Assembly (NCBI GenBank): GCA_050261675.1
Contig: JBLNDO010000055.1
Location: 2,701 to 66,700, forward strand
Direction: 5' to 3'
From: Bacillota bacterium
GTDB lineage: Bacteria > Pseudomonadota > Gammaproteobacteria > Natronospirales > REEB76
DNA length: 64,000 bases
The notes under the pieces were generated by a model. That model did not search any database, was not told the origin of the DNA, and worked only from the letters and a program-made list of their open reading frames with translations. The translations under genes were made by a program, and so were the position numbers. Shown in pieces: positions 5,836-13,980 of this stretch; the stretch's first letter is position 1, and each line of letters opens with the position of its first letter.

Positions 5836-6393
5836 ATGAGAAAACTGATCTACGCCATCAACGTGACCTTGGATGGCTGCTGCGACCACAGGAAGGTGAT
5901 CGCGGATGAAGAGCTGCACGATTATTACACGCAGCTCTTGCGGGAGATCGGGACCTTCGTCTATGGGCGCATCACCCATCAATTGATGGTCCCCTATTGG
6001 CCCGAGATGGCAAAGAACCAGTCCGGGTCAAGGGCGGAGAACGCGTTTGCCAAGGGCTTCGACGCGGTCGGCCAGACCGTCGTTTTCTCGCGCTCGCTGG
6101 CCAAGGCCGAGGGAAAGAACACGCGGATCGTCCGGTCGGGCCTTCGAGACGAGATCCTCAAACTGAAGCAGGAACCGGGGAAAGACATCCTGGTGGGCGG
6201 CGTGGACATCCCCTCGCAGCTCATGGCGCTGGACCTCATCGACGAATATCGCTTCGTGGTGCAGCCGATCATCGCGGGGGAAGGGAGACGCCTGTCGGCG
6301 GCCATCAAGCCACAGGAAGGACTGCGGTTGAAGCTCGCTGGGTCGAAGGCTTTCAAGTCCGGCTGCGTGGCGCTGCACTACACCAGACGGTGA
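5836..6393 (+). CDS. Dihydrofolate reductase-like (RibD C-terminal) protein
   Basis: MRKLIYAINVTLDG...GKDILVGG...LIDEYRFVVQPIIAGEG. Confidence 0.9.
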   Translation: MRKLIYAINVTLDGCCDHRKVIADEELHDYYTQLLREIGTFVYGRITHQLMVPYWPEMAKNQSGSRAENAFAKGFDAVGQTVVFSRSLAKAEGKNTRIVRSGLRDEILKLKQEPGKDILVGGVDIPSQLMALDLIDEYRFVVQPIIAGEGRRLSAAIKPQEGLRLKLAGSKAFKSGCVALHYTRR

Positions 6394-6421
6394 AAGGCTC
6401 TTGCTGCCCCGCGATCAAGAT

Positions 6422-6994
6422 TCAGTACACCCAGGGGATGAGGCGCTGGGTGCGGCGCTGGTAGTCCACGTAGCGGTCACCCAAACCCTTTACCAAGGCA
6501 ATCTCCTCCACGTGAATGCGGTAGCCGTAGGAAACGAGCGCCGCCGCGAGCACCACCAGGGCCGAGAGCCAGTTGCCCAGGGCGAAGCCGAAACCGAATA
6601 AAGCCACAATCGCGCCGAGATAGCTCGGGTGACGCACCCAGGAGTAGAGCCCTTTGTCCATGAGCGGATGGTCCGCCTCGATCGCCACCACCGGCATGTG
6701 CAGCCTTCCCAACTGCCGGATAGCGAGGAAGCGGATCCCGATCCCCAACGCCATGACCGCGAATCCGAAGAGCTGCAGCGGCACGGCCGCCGCGCCGAAG
6801 CTTCCGATGGGGCCGTAGGACCGGAAGATGGCCACGGCGATGCCGACCCACAGGACCAGCATCAGCCAGCCGAGGGAGCCGCGGTCGGCGCTCTTGGCGC
6901 GGCGGCTGTACCTGCTGAACACCCAAAGCAAGTCCAGCAGGAGCCAGGCCCAGAGCGAGAAACAGGCGACGTTACGCAAGTCCAGAGACATCAT
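6422..6994 (-). CDS. Isoprenylcysteine carboxyl methyltransferase family membrane protein
   Basis: GLYSWVRHPSY and RIHVEE motifs; start could extend to 7030. Confidence 0.85.
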   Translation of the reverse strand: MMSLDLRNVACFSLWAWLLLDLLWVFSRYSRRAKSADRGSLGWLMLVLWVGIAVAIFRSYGPIGSFGAAAVPLQLFGFAVMALGIGIRFLAIRQLGRLHMPVVAIEADHPLMDKGLYSWVRHPSYLGAIVALFGFGFALGNWLSALVVLAAALVSYGYRIHVEEIALVKGLGDRYVDYQRRTQRLIPWVY

Positions 6995-7207
6995 CGCAAC
7001 CCCCGCGAAGTGCAAAGAGTCTTCGCTCAATCCGCGGAGACCATTATCCGAGCGGCGGCGTGGCCCGGGTAGTGATAACTGTCATCGTTCTTGGCTGATG
7101 GCATGGGACCGGATGCTCTGCCGCCCATCGTCCATCCATATCCCTACGATCCAAACCCAGCTTGACCGCGTGAGCCCCGCGGCCGATGATTTCGCCAAGG
7201 AGCCGAA

Positions 7208-7846
7208 ATGACCATCACCATCACCGCGTTCGAACGCTCCCCCGACGGCGGCAAGGGACTGGCGCGGGACACGCGCGTGCGCTGGGCGCTGGAGGAAGTG
7301 CGGCAGCCCTACGAGGTGCGCTACGTCTCCTTCAAGGCCATGAAGGAAGCCGCGCACCTGGCGGTGCATCCCTTCGGCCAGATCCCCACCTACGAGGAAG
7401 ACGGCCTCGTCCTGTTCGAGTCCGGGGCGATCGTGCTCCACATCGCCGAGCAGCATGCGGGCCTGTTCCCCAAGGACGCCGATGCCCGGGCCCGGGCCAT
7501 CGCCTGGATGTTCGCGGCGCTCAGCACCGTCGAGCCGCCGATCCTCGAGCTCTCCATCGCCAAGTTCCAGGAGGGCGACAAGCCCTGGGGCCCGGAACGC
7601 ATACCGCTGGTCAAGGACCGGATCCGCGCGCGGCTGAACCCGCTCTCGGAACGCCTGGGCAAGGCCGAGTGGCTCGACGGCGCGTTCAGCGCCGGGGACC
7701 TGATGATGGTCTCGGTGCTGCTGAGGCTCCGGGCCTCGGGCCTCCTGGACGAGTTCCCGAACCTGGCGGCCTACGTGGCCCGCGGCGAGGCGCGGCCCGC
7801 CTATCAGCGGGCCTTCGCCGCACAACTGGCGGTCAACGCCCGCTGA
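7208..7846 (+). CDS. Glutathione S-transferase family protein
   Basis: HPFGQIP, LFESGAI and FSAGDL motifs; RBS AAGGAG. Confidence 0.92.
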   Translation: MTITITAFERSPDGGKGLARDTRVRWALEEVRQPYEVRYVSFKAMKEAAHLAVHPFGQIPTYEEDGLVLFESGAIVLHIAEQHAGLFPKDADARARAIAWMFAALSTVEPPILELSIAKFQEGDKPWGPERIPLVKDRIRARLNPLSERLGKAEWLDGAFSAGDLMMVSVLLRLRASGLLDEFPNLAAYVARGEARPAYQRAFAAQLAVNAR

Positions 7847-7896
7847 GCGGGGCTTCCGTATCCAGCGGCAAGGGATGGGTCGAAGCTCAAATCCAC
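7837..7896 (-). pseudogene. 5' remnant of the DpnI-like gene (codons 1-20)
   Basis: 48/60 nt ungapped identity (counted by hand) to 9856-9915; translates VDLSFDPSLAAGYGSPAQRA versus MDLSFDKSLAALYESPAQRA. Confidence 0.85.
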
Positions 7897-7913
7897 GTTT
7901 TCCCGTATTCATC

Positions 7914-7936
7914 AAACGTGGTCTGTCCCCTAATTA
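7914..7936 (+). repeat. GTCTGTCCCC-family repeat R4
   Basis: aaacgtggtctgtcccctaatta. Confidence 0.85.
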
Positions 7937-7984
7937 TAGGGGCTTGCGGCGCTCGATGATCCCCGGCACGAAGAAATGGCTGGG
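7937..7984 (-). pseudogene. Internal remnant of the DpnI-like gene
   Basis: 44/48 nt identical to 9526-9573; translates PSHFFVPGIIERRKPL versus PSHFFVPEIIERRKPL. Confidence 0.9.
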
Positions 7985-8018
7985 CGGAAGCCGGATCCAC
8001 GTTCTGTCAACCCGAAAT

Positions 8019-8042
8019 AACCACGGCCTTTCCCCGATTCCC
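8019..8042 (+). repeat. Degenerate GTCTGTCCCC-family repeat R5
   Basis: aaccacggcctttccccgattccc. Confidence 0.5.
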
Positions 8043-8123
8043 CACGCGATTGCGCGTATGCTGTGAGAAGTCCCGCCTCACCGCCCCGTCGATACGAACC
8101 CCTGCCCTTTCCCTGCCTTCGGC

Positions 8124-8471
8124 ATGGCGACTGCACCGGTAATCGACCACCACCGGAGCCCTCCCATGCCCATGGAAATATTTGAGTTCGTGAACGGTGC
8201 CCAGACCTACCGCATCCAGTTCGACATCGTGGCGCCGCCGCCGAGCGCCCACCCCAAGCCGGGCTTCACCCGCAACTTCGGGCTCAAGCCCCAGTTCACC
8301 GTGGCCAGCATCCGTATCGTCGAGATCACGCAGGGCGTCGGCGAGGACGGCCCCAAGAAGACGCTCAATTTCGCGCGCAGCTTCGACACCGTGGCCCAGG
8401 CCCGCACCGGCGCCGGCGAGTATGCCAAGCGCATCGTGCGCGAACAGATGGCGCCGAAACCGGCCGCTTAG
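8124..8471 (+). CDS. Hypothetical protein (start may be 8166 or 8172)
   Basis: ORF with host-like GC3 codon usage, followed by a terminator; no family recognised. Confidence 0.7.
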   Translation: MATAPVIDHHRSPPMPMEIFEFVNGAQTYRIQFDIVAPPPSAHPKPGFTRNFGLKPQFTVASIRIVEITQGVGEDGPKKTLNFARSFDTVAQARTGAGEYAKRIVREQMAPKPAA

Positions 8472-8497
8472 CCTTCAGCTTTCAGTTCTGGGGGAAT

Positions 8498-8530
8498 CCC
8501 CGTCAGCAGACGAGTGCTGGCGGGGTTTTT
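8498..8530 (+). terminator. Intrinsic terminator
   Basis: Stem ccccgtcagca/tgctggcgggg followed by ttttt; the right arm overlaps the DpnI remnant. Confidence 0.65.
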
Positions 8531-8567
8531 ATATCCAGCGGCGAGGGATGGGTCGAAGTCCAAATGC
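8516..8567 (-). pseudogene. Second 5' remnant of the DpnI-like gene
   Basis: Translates HLDFDPSLAAGYKNPA and then frameshifts; shares atccagcggcRagggatgggtcgaag with the 7837 remnant. Confidence 0.8.
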
Positions 8568-8587
8568 CCGTTGCTTCAGCCCCAAGT

Positions 8588-8612
8588 AAACGTGATCTGT
8601 CCCCTAATTCCC
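8588..8612 (+). repeat. GTCTGTCCCC-family repeat R6
   Basis: aaacgtgatctgtcccctaattccc. Confidence 0.8.
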
Positions 8613-8736
8613 TGCTTACGTGGGCCGAATGCTCGCAGAGCACCGATCAAATAAACAGCCCCTCCCCCATTTCACGTAATGGAGGGGGTGGATATATGAA
8701 TTTTTTGTGACAGACCCCCCTCTATACTTTCGCTCG

Positions 8737-8762
8737 AAACCGTGGGCTGTCCCTTATTATTA
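8737..8762 (+). repeat. GTCTGTCCCC-family repeat R7 (partial inverted copy at 8701-8718)
   Basis: aaaccgtgggctgtcccttattatta; abuts the stop codon of ORF 8760-8939. Confidence 0.7.
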
Positions 8763-8939
8763 TTCGCGCGTGTGAGGCCTCGTATCGCCTTTGTTCAGGC
8801 ACTTTGCAATTCGTGCTGCCCGCTCCTGGGCATCTTCGTGTTCGTCGTAGTCGCCACAGACGCAAATTTCTCGATTTGCGACATTGTCCACGACGACATA
8901 GGTTTCTAAATCAAACTGACTTACGGAATACCGGTTCAT
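8760..8939 (-). CDS. Small low-GC hypothetical protein (59 aa)
   Basis: MNRYSVSQFDLETYVVVDN...; RBS GAGGGGA; ATGA-coupled to the upstream ORF. Confidence 0.55.
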   Translation of the reverse strand: MNRYSVSQFDLETYVVVDNVANREICVCGDYDEHEDAQERAARIAKCLNKGDTRPHTRE

Positions 8940-9148
8940 ACAAGTCCCCTCTTGGTCCACACCTGAAATTCGGGATAAGACTGGCAATCTTGGAAATCCA
9001 TGTCTTTGTCGTCAGCCCAGACTAATTCTGTGAAATTCACATCGTCGTCGCTATATCCCCGGCACATGACCATGAATCCAGGAATGTATTGCTGAGCCCA
9101 CAAAGCGAAGCGAGCGAAAAATGGAGGTACTCGGATAGCCATAGTCAT
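8936..9148 (-). CDS. Small low-GC hypothetical protein (70 aa)
   Basis: Start overlaps the DpnI-like stop codon (ATGA coupling). Confidence 0.5.
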   Translation of the reverse strand: MTMAIRVPPFFARFALWAQQYIPGFMVMCRGYSDDDVNFTELVWADDKDMDFQDCQSYPEFQVWTKRGLV

Positions 9149-9915
9149 ATCACCCTATACCGGCCGCGGCCGATGAATTCCAAATAGCCCGCATCGCGCA
9201 ATACTTGGAGCTGTTGCCTGATCTTAGCTCGAACGTGGCGATTGTGGGCATGGAGTTTCGAAAGACGATCTTCGTAACGGTACGCGTCAGCCAGAGTGAA
9301 CTCAGATGACCCGAGTTGCTCTATGCACCGCATCACATCGAGGGTCCAACCACGAGTCTCGACTTTCTTCTGCTCCCGCAGGAACAAGGTGCGTTTCCAG
9401 GCGGCCAGCACCGAGGCCTTGGGGAGCGGCACGCCCTGCTCCACCAGGCTCACGCTCCCCGCCTGGGGGATCTCCCCCAAGAGGATGTTGCAACCCCGCC
9501 AGCCGGCACGCTTGGCCTTGGGGCCTAAGGGCTTCCGCCGCTCGATGATCTCCGGCACGAAGAAATGGCTGGGGATCACCACGAGATCCAGAACCTTAGC
9601 CTTCTGCAGGTCATAGGTCAGGCCAAAAAGATTCGGGACTTCGCTGCTCCTGAGGCGCCGGAGCATGGTGGCGTATTCCCCGTCTACGATCTTACGGCCG
9701 AAGGCATCCCGCTTGGCCTTGAGCTCGAACTGCTCCGAGCACTTTGGGCAGAAGAAATCCCCTACCGGGTTATTGTTGGGGTACTTCTCGATGGACGCCC
9801 GCCCGCAGTTGGGGCAGAAAACTTCCTGATGAACCCAGGACTCCGTCATCACCCGCGCCCGCTGCGCGGGGCTCTCATATAGAGCGGCGAGGGATTTATC
9901 GAAACTCAAATCCAT
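9145..9915 (-). CDS. DpnI / Dam-replacing family type IIM methyl-directed restriction endonuclease
   Basis: CPNCG and DFFCPKC zinc ligands, ELKAK catalytic motif, DGEYATM, RAGWRGCNI, and C-terminal winged helix KIRQQLQVLRDAGYLEFIGRGRY. Confidence 0.92.
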   Translation of the reverse strand: MDLSFDKSLAALYESPAQRARVMTESWVHQEVFCPNCGRASIEKYPNNNPVGDFFCPKCSEQFELKAKRDAFGRKIVDGEYATMLRRLRSSEVPNLFGLTYDLQKAKVLDLVVIPSHFFVPEIIERRKPLGPKAKRAGWRGCNILLGEIPQAGSVSLVEQGVPLPKASVLAAWKRTLFLREQKKVETRGWTLDVMRCIEQLGSSEFTLADAYRYEDRLSKLHAHNRHVRAKIRQQLQVLRDAGYLEFIGRGRYRVI

Positions 9916-9935
9916 GTTGCGCTATCCCCTATAAC

Positions 9936-10062
9936 GGCGCACAGCCAGCGGCGCCGAGACAAGGCAAAAAGCCTTAGCCAACCCGGAGCGTACTCTTGGT
10001 GTACGTGAGGACTGGCTAAGGCTTTTTAACGCAGTATTCGGCGGCGGCTGGCGAAGCGCCTA
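9936..10062. repeat. ~125-bp nested palindromic element
   Basis: 15-bp arms aaaaagccttagcca/tggctaaggcttttt around the core ggagcgtac-N7-gtacgtgagga; outer arms ggcgc..gccagc..cgccga / tcggcg..gctggc..gcgcc; ends in the nrdJb stop codon. Confidence 0.75.
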
Positions 10063-10821
10063 GCCGCACTTTGAGTCGCCGCAATTGAGACACGTCATAC
10101 ACCCATCCATCATCACCACCGCCGCGGTGCTGCACTTCTGGCAGAGCTGCGCCCCGGCCGGGAACTTGCTCTCGGCGAAGGCGTCGGTCTGCTTCGCCGC
10201 GGCCTCGAACTCGGCGCGCTTCTGGGCGATGAGCTTCTTCTGGTGCTCGTCCAGGCCTTCCTTGTGCATGAGGCCGATGGAAATCAGGTGCTTCTCGATG
10301 ACGTCGCCGATCTCGGCGATCAGCGAGGGCATGAACTTGCCGCCCGGCTTCCAGTAGCCGCCGCGGGGGTCGAACACGGCCTTGAGCTCCTCCACCAGGA
10401 AGGCCACGTCGCCGCCCTTCCTGAACACGGCGCTGATGATGCGCGTCAGGGCCACGATCCACTGGAAGTGGTCCAGGTTCTTGGAGTTGATGAAGATCTC
10501 GAAGGGCCGGCGCTGCTCGTAGGGGGTGCCTTCGTTCAGCACGATGTCGTTGATGGTGATGTACATGGCGTGGTCGGAGACCGGCGTCTTCACCTTGTAG
10601 GTGGAGCCGATGAGCATGTCGGGCCGCTCCAGGGCCTCGTGCATGCGGATGACCTCGGCCTTGTGCTTCTTCTCGGCCCGCTCGGTGACGATCTTCTCCA
10701 CCGGCTTCGAGCTCAGGGCCAGGGCCGCGGCCTGGGTCTCGGCCTGCACGTCCGCCTTGGGCGCGTCCTCGGCTTTCTGGACCGCATACTTGGTTATCTT
10801 CTTCTCGATTTTGATGCTCAT
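10060..10821 (-). CDS. nrdJb: Class II ribonucleotide reductase small part NrdJb (TSCPD domain)
   Basis: RPDMLIGSTYKVKTP, RPFEIFINSK, and C-terminal CQKC...DGCMTCLNCGDSKCG. Confidence 0.93.
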   Translation of the reverse strand: MSIKIEKKITKYAVQKAEDAPKADVQAETQAAALALSSKPVEKIVTERAEKKHKAEVIRMHEALERPDMLIGSTYKVKTPVSDHAMYITINDIVLNEGTPYEQRRPFEIFINSKNLDHFQWIVALTRIISAVFRKGGDVAFLVEELKAVFDPRGGYWKPGGKFMPSLIAEIGDVIEKHLISIGLMHKEGLDEHQKKLIAQKRAEFEAAAKQTDAFAESKFPAGAQLCQKCSTAAVVMMDGCMTCLNCGDSKCG

Positions 10822-10831
10822 AAACTCGCCT

Positions 10832-11693
10832 CTACTTGTTCACGGACCGAGGAATCATCGGCCCAAACGGCCCTATGGCAATTTTAACGTGCCCGCCTGC
10901 GGCCTTGTGGAACGCGTCGTGGCAGCTCTTGCACAGGGTCACTAAATTGCTTACCTCATACTTCAACACAGGAAACCGCTGGAACGGCCACACATGGTGG
11001 GCTCAGCTTCCCGCCCCGGCGACCGCACATCCTGCACGTGTAGTCGTCGCGCCTGAAACAGGCTTCCCGGGCCTCTCGCATGTACATCGACATGCGCTGC
11101 CGGCGCTGCTCGCCGGTGATGCCGCCTTTCCAGTTGTAGCGCTTGGAACCGAGGTTGGCGAGCCTCAGCTTCTCACGCACCCGCGCCGTCGGGCTCTTGC
11201 GCCGGTCGATTCCGGCCTTCTCGAGCCAGGCGCCCACGGTAGCGGCGCTCACACCCAGTTTCTTGCCTATCTCCGGGGTGGAAAGCTGGGACCGCGCGTA
11301 CCACTGGGCGGCACGCGCGGCCAGCTGACCCTCCCGGTCCAGCGACAACCTGTCGCCGATCTTTCGGCGCAACGCATCGGTCACATAGACACGGCGCGAA
11401 TTGCGCTTTAGATTCATCTCCCGGCGCCAATCGAACAACGTCGGTACCGGAATCTTCAGGCGGCGGGCGATGTCCGGTATCGGCACGCCGCTTTCATACA
11501 ACCTCTTCACCTCTTCGCCAAAAACCGTTTTGCGCGGGTCGGGGTTGTTCTTGCCCTTCGGCAGCACACCCCGGCAGTACGTACTTGCCGTGGCCACGGA
11601 GACGCCGGTCAACCGGGCGATCTCCTTGAGGCTTAAGCCTTGCCGGCGCAGCTTCCGCGCCTCGGCGACCTTGCCTTCCCGCCGATCAGCCAA
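10832..11693 (-). pseudogene. Free-standing HNH (homing-type) endonuclease with HTH/NUMOD modules, frameshifted just before the HNH motif
   Basis: The ORF has HTH repeats, NWKGG and RDDYTCRMCG. After a frameshift at ~11004 (ctg a gcc cac cat) it continues AHHVWPFQRFPVLKYEVSNLVTLCKSCHDAFH to TAG at 10834-10832. Confidence 0.85.
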
Positions 11694-11704: not shown

Positions 11705-13852
11705 CTACAGGCGACCGTAGTACCCCTCCTTGAGCGCATCGAATAAATTCGCCGCCGTGTGCATTTCACCGTCGTATTCGATCATCTCATCGCCTCGCGC
11801 TTCCACCACGCTGCCGTCCTCCAGGGTGAACTTGTAGACGGTGTTCTTGAGGTCCTGCTCCTTCACCAGCACACCCTGGAAGGCCTCCGGATTGAAGCGG
11901 AAGGTGGTGCAGCCCTTCAAGCCCGACTCGTAGGCGTAGAGGTAGATGTCCTTGAACTGCTCGTAGGGGTAGCCCGTCGGCACGTTCGCGGTCTTGGAGA
12001 TGGAGGAATCCACCCACTTCTGGGCCGCGGCCTGGATGTCCACGTGCTCCTTGGGGGTGATGTGCTCGGCGGTGATGAAGTACTCCGGCAGCTTCTCCTC
12101 CGGTTCCTCGGAGTTCGGCATGGCCTTCTGGTTCACGAGCTGGCGGTAGGCCAGGAGCTCGAAGGAATACACGTCCACCTTCTCCTTGGACTTCTTGCCG
12201 GAGCGGATCACGTTCCTAAAGTAGTGGTGGGCGAAGGAGGGCTCGATGCCGTTGCTGGCGTTGTTGGCCAGGGACAGGGAGATGGTGCCGGTGGGGGCGA
12301 TGGAGCTGTGGTGGGTGAAGCGGGCGCCCTGGGCGGCCAAGGCGTCCACCAGGTCCGGGGCCACTTCCGCCACCCGCTGCATGTAGCGGCTGTAGTTGGC
12401 GTGCAGCTCCCGGCCCTTGATCTTGTCGCCCACCTTCCAGCCGTCCGCGGCCATTTCGGGGCGCTTCCGGAGCATCTCGGCGGTGACCTCGAACTCCTCC
12501 ACCATGATGGGGGCGGGGCCCTTCTCCTTGGCGAGCTCCAGGGCCTCTTCCCAGCCGGCCACGGCCATTTCCCGGGAGACGTCCTCGGTGAACTTCACGG
12601 ATTCCGGCGAGCCGTATTTCCAGCCCAGCATGGTGATGCTGGACCCGAGGCCGAGATAACCCATGCCGTGGCGGCGCTTGCGGGTGATCTCCCGGCGCTG
12701 CTGCTCCAGCGGCAGGCCGTTGATCTCGACCACGTTGTCCAGCATGCGGGTGAAGACCTTCACCACTTCCCGGTATTCGTCCCAGTCGAAGCGGGCCTTG
12801 GGGGTAAAGGGGTCCAGCACGAACTTGGTGAGGTTCACGGAGCCGAGCAGGCAGGAGCCGTAGGGCGGCAGGGGCTGCTCGCCGCAGGGGTTGGTGGCGC
12901 GGATGTTCTCGCACCACCAGTTGTTGTTCATCTCGTTGACTTTATCTATCAAAACGAAACCTGGCTCTGCGAAGTCGTAGGTGGAGGCCATGATCAGGTC
13001 CCACAGGCGCCGGGCGTGGATGCTCTTATAGATGCGGCAGGCCACGAGCCCCTGCGGGTTCACGATGTAGCCCTCGGTCACGGGCCACTCGCGCCAGACC
13101 ACCTTGGTCTTGTCCGTGAGGTCGATCTTCTCGGACTCCACTTCCTTCTTGTCGTAGGGGAAGGCGAGCTGCCATTCGCCGTCCGCCTTCACCGCTTCCA
13201 TGAAGTCCTTGGTGACCAGCAGCGAGAGGTTGAACTGGCGCAGGCGCCCGTCCTCGCGCTTGGCGCGGATGAAGTCGGTGACGTCCGGGTGGCCCACCTC
13301 GAAGGTGCCCATCTGGGCGCCGCGGCGGCCGCCCGCCGAGGACACGGTGAAGCACATCTTGTCGTAGATATCCATGAAGGACAGGGGCCCGGAGGTGTAG
13401 GCGCCGGCGCCGGCCACATAGGCGCCGCGGGGGCGGAGCGTAGAGAACTCGTAGCCGATGCCGCAGCCGGCCTTCAGGGTCAGGCCCGCCTCATGGACCT
13501 TGTTCAGGATGTTGTCCATGGAGTCCCGGATGGTGCCCGAGACGGTGCAATTGATGGTGGAGGTGGCGGGCTTGTGCTCGAGGGCCCCGGCGTTGGAGGT
13601 GACGCGGCCGGCCGGGATGGCGCCGTGGCGCAGGGCCCACAGGAACTTCTCGTACCACTCCTCGCGCTTCTCGGGGATCTCCACGTCGGCCAAGGCCCGC
13701 GCCACCCGCTTCCAGGTGTCGTCCACGGTCTCGTCGACGATGGTGCCGTCCTTGGCCTTGAGGCGATACTTCTTGTCCCAGATGTCGTAAGAGGCTTCTT
13801 GTACGGGTATCTCGGTCACGGCGGCGGGCGCCTGCTTCAAAACGGTATTCAT
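11705..13852 (-). CDS. nrdJa: Adenosylcobalamin-dependent (class II) ribonucleotide reductase large part NrdJa
   Basis: TINCTVS, ATNPCGEQPLPPYGSCLLGS, IAPTGTIS, DSSISKT and LKGCTTFR motifs; RBS GGGAGG before ATG 13852. Confidence 0.95.
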   Translation of the reverse strand: MNTVLKQAPAAVTEIPVQEASYDIWDKKYRLKAKDGTIVDETVDDTWKRVARALADVEIPEKREEWYEKFLWALRHGAIPAGRVTSNAGALEHKPATSTINCTVSGTIRDSMDNILNKVHEAGLTLKAGCGIGYEFSTLRPRGAYVAGAGAYTSGPLSFMDIYDKMCFTVSSAGGRRGAQMGTFEVGHPDVTDFIRAKREDGRLRQFNLSLLVTKDFMEAVKADGEWQLAFPYDKKEVESEKIDLTDKTKVVWREWPVTEGYIVNPQGLVACRIYKSIHARRLWDLIMASTYDFAEPGFVLIDKVNEMNNNWWCENIRATNPCGEQPLPPYGSCLLGSVNLTKFVLDPFTPKARFDWDEYREVVKVFTRMLDNVVEINGLPLEQQRREITRKRRHGMGYLGLGSSITMLGWKYGSPESVKFTEDVSREMAVAGWEEALELAKEKGPAPIMVEEFEVTAEMLRKRPEMAADGWKVGDKIKGRELHANYSRYMQRVAEVAPDLVDALAAQGARFTHHSSIAPTGTISLSLANNASNGIEPSFAHHYFRNVIRSGKKSKEKVDVYSFELLAYRQLVNQKAMPNSEEPEEKLPEYFITAEHITPKEHVDIQAAAQKWVDSSISKTANVPTGYPYEQFKDIYLYAYESGLKGCTTFRFNPEAFQGVLVKEQDLKNTVYKFTLEDGSVVEARGDEMIEYDGEMHTAANLFDALKEGYYGRL

Positions 13853-13980
13853 CTTAAGTCTCTGCCTCCCTGGGGGCATTTCTTGCTTCTTAAATGGCCG
13901 GCCCGGCCTGCACGCGCGCTTCCATTGCAGACCCTGTTCCTAATCCGTGGATAAACGGTGGAAAAGCTGGGAGGAACAAG

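Follow-up and report, generated by a model that had tools for sequence, protein, structure and literature searches.

Why do three broken pieces of a DpnI-like restriction gene lie beside an intact copy of that gene, and did they decay from that copy or from others that held the site before it? The locus that raises this question lies in a 64,000-nucleotide (nt) stretch of contig JBLNDO010000055.1 (positions 2,701 to 66,700, forward strand; assembly GCA_050261675.1), which we refer to as the window and whose coordinates are used throughout. The contig (C55) belongs to a metagenome-derived genome of 2.59 Mb in 103 contigs (G000) from an order of uncultured Gammaproteobacteria, and the pieces sit between nrdJb and a glutathione S-transferase (GST) gene. 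An earlier reading of this DNA (the original prediction) proposed that different alleles had repeatedly been inserted, broken and replaced here through recombination at a repeat core, CCCCTA. Our analysis supports the replacement but not this mechanism: the locus is probably a fast-turnover defense hotspot that holds a live three-gene cassette, the dead heads left by two or more previous DpnI cassettes of another allele lineage, and an internal scrap.

DpnI relics beside an intact gene

The intact gene (9145..9915, minus strand) encodes a 256-amino-acid (aa) DpnI-family protein, and three shorter tracts on the same strand, all within 2 kb, match parts of it. Relic A (7837..7896), delimited by nt alignment, comprises a GTG start and DpnI codons 1-20 (VDLSFDPSLAAGYGSPAQRA); relic B (~8490..8569) comprises decayed codons 1 to ~28 (GHLDFDPSLAAGYKNPAS); and the internal relic (7940..7984), likewise delimited by nt alignment, comprises codons 115-129 in frame (PSHFFVPGIIERRKP), giving lengths of 20, ~28 and 15 codons. 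A repeat finder recovered all three tracts that the original prediction had singled out, with 7837-7899 being 81% identical to 9856-9918, 8510-8572 being 70% identical to the first fragment, and 7937-7984 being 92% identical (44/48) to 9526-9573; the claimed matches of 48/60 and 44/48 nt and the shared strand were reproduced, while the second 5' fragment, placed at 8516-8567, is real but longer than proposed, reaching about codon 28 (~8490). Local alignments of the relics to DpnI genes score between 43 and 81, against shuffle maxima of 26-33. Collinear with the gene, significantly similar to it and truncated, the three fragments are pseudogene relics of DpnI.

The origin of relics A and B is best read from what lies upstream of them. 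Both are collinear with the entire head of an intact DpnI gene in a relative of a different genus (G027), comprising an upstream motif that we call R, a spacer, a GTG start and the N-terminus, and the same arrangement (motif, ~20-nt spacer, GTG start, intact DpnI) is seen in contig L061. The resident gene, whose N-terminus reads MDLSFDKSLAALYESPAQRA, has an ATG start, no spacer and no R copy detectable with our weight matrix, and thus a head unlike those of the relics. When the 105 nt spanning the R copy and relic A were used as a query against 41 family genomes, there were just two matches beyond the query itself, one to relic B with 78% identity over 94 nt and the other to the G027 head with 79% over 85 nt. 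Over its 60 coding nt, relic A matches the intact gene at 48 positions and G027 at 47, but within the first 51 nt it agrees with G027 at 43 positions and with the intact gene at 39, and with the head included the alignment scores are 81 and 66, respectively. Relic B also leans toward G027 (41/60 nt, versus 36/60 for the intact gene), and its alignment to the G027 head is continuous through motif, spacer, start and coding sequence (score 54; shuffle maximum 30); its start position now reads GGG, and a 31-aa open reading frame (ORF) remains that starts from a TTG two codons further in. Because the resident gene lacks a G027-type head, these comparisons support the derivation of relics A and B from DpnI alleles other than the resident one, as the original prediction had held. 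The full-length relic alleles that it envisaged in relatives were recovered in part: full-length alleles with SLAAGY or AAGY N-termini exist, among them that of G027 at the same locus and that of L141, a metagenome contig from the same genus as G000. In the N-termini of the 120 best homologues, AAGY occurs in 3, SLAAGY in 2 and FDPS in 0, and the exact relic allele was not found.

The internal relic matches the intact gene at 42/45 nt, L141 at 39/45 and G027 at 38/45, with an alignment score of 75 (shuffle maximum 31). It is collinear with relic B, and the two may be parts of one former copy; although all three fragments are real, they therefore require only two former copies. A candidate fourth relic at ~8000-8050, in which an R-like motif and GTGGAT appeared fused to the internal piece, gave marginal alignments (shuffles reached its score in 301/500, 32/500, 31/500 and 5/1000 trials), was negative by weight matrix, and contains GTGGATCC, which can be read equally well as codons 111-113 of the internal relic.

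At 80 genome loci and 80 metagenome loci of other phyla, we found no second DpnI match near the DpnI gene and no DpnI-associated R motif (one regular-expression match was unrelated), and no DpnI fragments follow the R copies of L141. An independent DpnI relic was observed in another genus at the same hotspot, in G023 (L036 8069-8161), where residues 225-255 with an in-frame TAG lie 3' of an Mrr-NACHT gene.

Turnover of the locus among relatives

The content found after nrdJb is different in every relative examined, in agreement with the predicted site of serial replacement. The gene following nrdJb in G007 is dCTP-deaminase-like; G011 carries ImmA-like, PurA-like/AAA and DUF7002 genes; G037 has an AAA_15/21 ATPase and then DpnI; G023 has Mrr-NACHT and then the DpnI C-terminal remnant with its in-frame stop; and G027 has Fic followed by a DpnI cassette. 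DpnI itself is present in 5 of 61 genomes including G000, being full-length in G027, G021 and G037 and a remnant in G023, and was found in none of the 14 other genomes of the same genus. One flank, nrdJb, is conserved with variable content after it; on the other side, a thioredoxin gene borders the locus in genus g2 (G019, G023 and G027, from ORF translations), and in the genus to which the window belongs the right flank has been rearranged. These observations support the nrdJb-GST interval as a defense-gene replacement hotspot.

Sequence divergence points the same way. Between G000 and L141, nrdJb is 94.2% identical in nt (98.9% in aa) and DpnI 70.2% (74% in aa), while between G000 and G027, in another genus, the values are 85.1% for nrdJb and 73.1% (75% in aa) for DpnI. 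The L141 DpnI is thus no closer to the live gene than the G027 allele is, despite coming from the same genus, and on these identities the divergence of DpnI is shown to be decoupled from that of the core gene.

These comparisons also bear on whether anything was acquired at all. A local tandem duplication of one resident DpnI cassette, with the extra copies decaying and nothing gained or replaced, would fit co-oriented copies within 2 kb, a relic A that no other allele matches more closely than the resident gene does, and an internal relic closest to the resident gene. It would not provide the relic heads with the R, ~20-nt spacer and GTG of G027 and L061, which the resident gene lacks, and random decay would not raise the likeness to G027 in the first 51 nt or upstream. 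Moreover, the roughly 70% identical DpnI allele of L141 beside a 94% identical nrdJb implies that alleles do get exchanged at this site, and we consider duplication unlikely.

The live cassette

By its domains and structural alignment, the intact gene encodes a DpnI-family Type IIM (methyl-directed) restriction endonuclease, predicted to cleave G(m6A)TC only when methylated. Both DpnI domains are full-length in the 256-aa product (Pfam PF06044 DpnI, positions 1-181 of a 183-position profile, E 7.8e-70; PF17726 DpnI_C winged-helix domain, residues 186-254, E 7.4e-30), the PADLOC model mREase_II matches it with E 1.9e-98, and the Streptococcus pneumoniae DpnI structure 4ESJ aligns with it end to end (E 1.4e-76). 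The D...FELK motif is aligned and conserved, the PD-(D/E)XK region reading pvgDFfCpkCseqFELKaK against PVADFYCNHCSEEFELKSK, and we take the catalytic residues to lie within this motif. No Dam-family methylase (PF02086) was found in the G000 genome, which is 96% complete, so that absence is unproven; the same search was positive in 6 of 14 named control genomes. A host without a detectable Dam methylase fits the requirement of a live DpnI.

Two small genes complete the cassette. The 70-aa orf70 (8936..9148, minus strand) overlaps the DpnI stop codon and, by synteny, is a conserved partner of DpnI: a homologue lies directly 3' of DpnI at 21 of the 80 genome loci and 29 of the 80 metagenome loci (50/160), in many phyla but mostly in Patescibacteria. 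The third gene, orf75 (8760..8939, minus strand; probable start MNRYSV), also assigned by synteny, has homologues after orf70 in G021 and G027 and after DpnI in L141, and none at the 80 genome loci elsewhere. The module of DpnI, orf70 and orf75 thus recurs in G021 and G027. No family match was obtained in Pfam, NCBIfam or PADLOC for orf70, orf75 or orf115, a small gene between the relics. The cassette coincides with a dip in G+C content (GC), to 46-53% over 8600-9300 versus 63-73% in the flanks. A sigma-70 promoter scan detected nothing promoter-like either for the live gene or inside R, and the tract 5' of the live gene (9916-9935), which looks R-like by eye, was rejected as an R copy since it is negative by weight matrix.

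Edges, junctions and native neighbors

The left edge of the variable region is fixed by a conserved hairpin of ~125 nt directly after the nrdJb stop codon (9936..10060, minus strand), recognized by folding and covariation, and variable DNA begins at its base. Its folding energy is -69.7 kcal/mol (z -6.5), with 0/200 shuffles as stable, and it is present in 6 genomes from 3 genera (also in loci L029, L031, L033, L034 and L038), where 21 of 31 pairs show compensatory changes. No counterpart was found in G002, G017, G019, G023, G037 or L141, and an Rfam search over 7700-10200 with E up to 1 gave no match.

At the right edge of the relic field lies the native GST gene (7208..7846, plus strand; Pfam GST_N and GST_C), whose orthologues in relatives are 74-82% identical and whose native 3' end, AACGCCCGCTGA, is the same in G012. 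Relic A runs into the GST stop codon over its last 9-10 nt (minus-strand sequence TCAGCGGGCG), a stretch of GC-rich microhomology that is the sequence signature expected of a microhomology-mediated deletion halting at this codon. All other junctions overlap by at most 1-3 nt, including that between the internal relic and the first R copy (AAGCCC-CTATAA-TTAGGGG). The original prediction had this fragment joined to the repeat at a TTAGG microhomology, but such a join would have removed the CTATAA that remains. Nor do the junctions coincide with repeat cores more generally, as the only real microhomology is the one at the GST stop codon, in which the repeat has no part.

Between the relics sits a native small gene with its own upstream box, orf115 (8050..8471, plus strand), recognized by its conservation in relatives. 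Its block is 67-83% identical in nt to 9 relatives only over ~8054/8085-8468, with flanks that differ in 9/9, and the gene occurs in 14 of 61 genomes (a tally that includes the unpublished genome G020, on which none of the other claims depends). The edge of relic B lies ~20 nt from the orf115 stop codon, and relic B sequence makes up an intrinsic-terminator-like hairpin with a T-run (8498..8525, plus strand), an 11-pair stem followed by TTTTTATATC that starts 27 nt after that stop (-31.9 kcal/mol, z -2.35; 4/200 shuffles as stable). Relic B may have been kept as a terminator for orf115, a putative role suggested by this position and fold.

Upstream of the hairpin, between nrdJa (11705-13879) and nrdJb (10060-10821), we also observed, at 10832-11693 on the minus strand, a 245-aa ORF with multiple helix-turn-helix (HTH) motifs and, after it, a separate 53-aa ORF with an HNH motif (Pfam HNH, E 1.8e-4). 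Together they have the appearance of a free-standing, homing-endonuclease-like gene broken by a frameshift, and no homologue turned up in the loci of ten relatives. In three loci, L034 (G027), L036 (G023) and L038 (G016), about 1 kb interrupts the match to nrdJa at around residues 300-332 of the window's protein, which suggests an intein or other insertion in the reductase gene.

The R motif

The repeat that prompted the proposal of recombination at CCCCTA is a 22-nt sequence at 7914-7935 and 8588-8609, which lies 18-20 nt from each 5' relic and abuts the internal relic. Its two matches in the window compare with 0.00 expected (100 shuffles), and its 13-nt core occurs at only these two places in the genome. 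It belongs to R, a non-palindromic intergenic motif with a consensus of ~26 nt, about AATAATAGGGGACAGACCACGATTTCTT; the pattern GGGRCAGAYCRCGWTT, when at most one mismatch is allowed, is present in 29 of 37 related genomes (74 matches, versus 5 for a reversed control). By a position weight matrix (PWM) trained on relatives only, G000 has 11 strong R sites, of which five lie on the minus strand within the window's first 8.8 kb and others are on contigs C41, C44 and C26. In the window, R1 (7910..7939, PWM score 26.3) heads relic A and is collinear with the motif 5' of DpnI in G027 and L061; R2 (8584..8613, score 29.3; 95% identical to R1 over 22 nt) heads relic B; and further copies lie at 405-434 and 1975-2001. 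Two of the window copies stand 15-17 nt 5' of genes for an M20 peptidase and a membrane protein. R often lies just after the stop codon of one gene and 14-55 nt ahead of the next start, in same-strand clusters. Since R also stands 5' of ordinary genes across the lineage, the proposed CCCCTA core recombination is not supported, and R is a candidate promoter or leader element, or a candidate recombination site. The claim that every fragment lies within ~20 bp of a repeat is correct, but as the relics are gene heads and R is the upstream region of the head, this nearness follows trivially.

The fifth copy, R3, is part of a composite host repeat (8640..8763, minus strand), in which an R copy at 8734-8763 (PWM score 33.0) is followed by a 'TGTCACAAAAAAT' element and a G/C hairpin. 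We rejected R3 (8738-8759) as the head of a further DpnI cassette, given this composite with the TGTCAC element and nothing DpnI-like after it. The TGTCAC element (~8640-8735 in the window, minus strand) reads CTGTCACAAAAAAT(T/A)CATAT, then a G/C-rich hairpin and GGGAGGGGCTAG; it has 9 copies in G000 (one each on C21, C24, C26, C30, C41, C55 and C74 and two on C88), is preceded by R at 30-140 nt in some copies, and also occurs in relatives, 3' of the GST gene of G007 and at two places in G013. The composite of R and the TGTCAC element recurs in G013 and on contig C41. On contig C37 of G010 (L221 2230-2300 and 2928-2990), we observed one and the same ~40-nt piece from the 3' end of a GFA-family gene after each of two R copies; in one case it belongs to an intact gene and in the other it is apparently a stranded remnant, in parallel to the DpnI relics.

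R was compared with the sites of two known repeat-based systems and fits neither. In contrast to the attC sites of integrons, it is non-palindromic and the genes around it are on both strands, and no integrase domain (PF00589) was found on C55, the four matches in the genome all being on other contigs. Likewise, the Y1 transposase family (PF01797) that accompanies repetitive extragenic palindromes (REP/RAYT systems) was not found in the genome, and R lacks their palindromic form.

Could R nevertheless be the crossover or junction site of an undescribed cassette-shuffling system in this order, one with no linked recombinase, by which single genes, DpnI cassettes as well as ordinary ones like the M20 peptidase gene, are inserted, exchanged and permuted, leaving the relics as leftover heads? 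If true, such a system would account for why R copies cluster on the same strand, why gene order is permuted among close relatives, and why heads and tails of genes are stranded beside R. R copies do cluster on one strand in variable regions (five within 8.3 kb of the window, four within 3.6 kb on C41, five on C37 of G010 and three on C239 of G013), the homology of relics A and B starts exactly at the R 5' edge, and R3 directly follows the last cassette gene, as one R copy does in L141. In addition, a lipocalin-like gene, an R-like motif and a membrane gene in G010 stand against R, M20 peptidase, R and membrane gene in G000, and the two G010 copies precede the same GFA gene-end piece. Yet the contig yielded no recombinase and the genome no Y1 transposase, and a non-palindromic motif 14-55 nt before ordinary start codons is more like a promoter or 5' untranslated region element. 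The relics are truncated away from R, the junction of the internal relic is unfit for a crossover within the motif, the live cassette has no R head, and the intergenic regions of G000 and G010 are too diverged for breakpoints to be placed. We therefore hold such a system to be quite improbable.

A possible history of the site

Under the preferred reading, a fast-turnover defense hotspot, the site would first have housed a cassette whose head, with its R motif, spacer and GTG start, was of the G027 type. Newer DpnI DNA would then have entered by recombination anchored on the conserved nrdJb side, and the redundant older copies would have been trimmed by illegitimate, microhomology-mediated deletions that halted where the native neighbors, GST and orf115, would be damaged; the order of these events is one that we infer. 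Relic A resembles the G027 head (79-84%) about as closely as the two genomes resemble each other in nrdJb (85%), so the relic may represent the vertical orthologue of the G027 copy, with the live gene as the later arrival. With no integrase on the contig and no Y1 transposase in the genome, general recombination anchored in nrdJb fits better than a dedicated mobile element. Seen this way, the locus is a case of ordinary defense-gene turnover, of a known kind rather than a new mechanism, in which the relics are unusually legible.

Several points weigh against this history. The relics are seen only in one 103-contig, metagenome-derived assembly, and no strain with a full-length relic-type allele at the exact position was found. 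The coding sequence of relic A is nearly equidistant from the resident gene and G027 (48 versus 47 of 60 nt), so it is mostly the upstream head and the first 51 nt that set the alleles apart. The position of orf115 between relic B and the internal piece is an order that simple serial insertion leaves unexplained, and the order and relative orientation of the ICMT, DHFR-like, GST and orf115 genes (5836-8471) are permuted among four members of one genus, G000, G012 (L040/L051), G011 (L031/L045/L056) and L141, indicating that larger rearrangements also shaped the region. Finally, the route by which newer DNA would have entered, whether transformation or homology-facilitated illegitimate recombination, is itself one that we infer. 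That the relics are assembly artefacts, chimeric joins of strain variants, is scarcely credible, for although the genome is in 103 contigs and those of G010, G015, G041 and G044 break at or near the locus, the relics are 8-30% diverged from the live gene, are 45-80 nt long and adjoin unique stretches of native DNA (the end of GST and the block of orf115), strain-collapse chimeras yield near-identical repeats rather than short diverged pieces, and the independent metagenome contig L141 has DpnI directly after nrdJb in this genus.

Microhomology-mediated deletion and homology-facilitated illegitimate recombination are familiar concepts, and the locus resembles them in the GC-rich 9-10 nt overlap between relic A and GST and in the long anchor offered by nrdJb (85-94% identical in nt). 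It differs in that such a process is here a proposed reading of the sequence and that the other junctions overlap by 1-3 nt at most.

Comparison with known loci

As described in PMC4471560 and PMC3812788, the pneumococcal dpn locus carries DpnI, DpnII or DpnIII cassettes at one syntenic site between conserved flanks, and its DpnI cassette consists of the endonuclease gene dpnC and a small gene of unknown function, dpnD, with no methylase. The present locus is alike in pairing a DpnI homologue with a small partner gene at a site whose content differs among relatives, and orf70 is possibly analogous to dpnD, though with no Pfam family detectable the relation is one of analogy only. It is unlike the dpn locus in that alleles of the same enzyme and unrelated defense genes replace each other and dead heads stay behind (the term 'remnant' does not occur in the available portion of PMC4471560), and in that only one flank, nrdJb with the hairpin, is conserved in the genus.

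In Neisseria, drg (dam-replacing gene) is a gene of lower GC for a DpnI-family, GmATC-specific endonuclease, inserted at a fixed locus in hosts without Dam activity (PMC516771 and PMC4269198). Our cassette likewise has a GC below that of its flanks in a genome in which no Dam-family gene was found, but where the Neisseria insertion replaces dam itself, the site here is intergenic, 3' of nrdJb, and no dam remnant was seen. Defense-island hotspots with variable cargo at a fixed position flanked by core genes, some with unclear mobilization, are outlined in bioRxiv 10.1101/2022.06.09.495481; in comparison with the islands outlined there, the present region is only ~2 kb, has no mobility gene on the contig, and is bounded by a structured hairpin rather than a tRNA gene or plain gene boundary. 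Taken together, the dpn locus, drg and defense hotspots already cover the principle. Particular to this locus are the replacement of alleles within one family with legible heads, the structured hairpin edge, and the lineage-wide motif at gene heads.

Conclusions

The locus is a compact record of defense-gene turnover, with one deletion scar that bears clear microhomology, and it presents a methylase-free, single-enzyme system repeatedly replaced by its own other alleles. As such, it offers a small natural case for studying how cargo is exchanged at hotspots that have no mobility genes. The by-products of the analysis, namely a covarying 125-nt hairpin, a 26-nt lineage-wide motif, and an orf70 linked to DpnI across phyla, may prove more interesting than the relics themselves.

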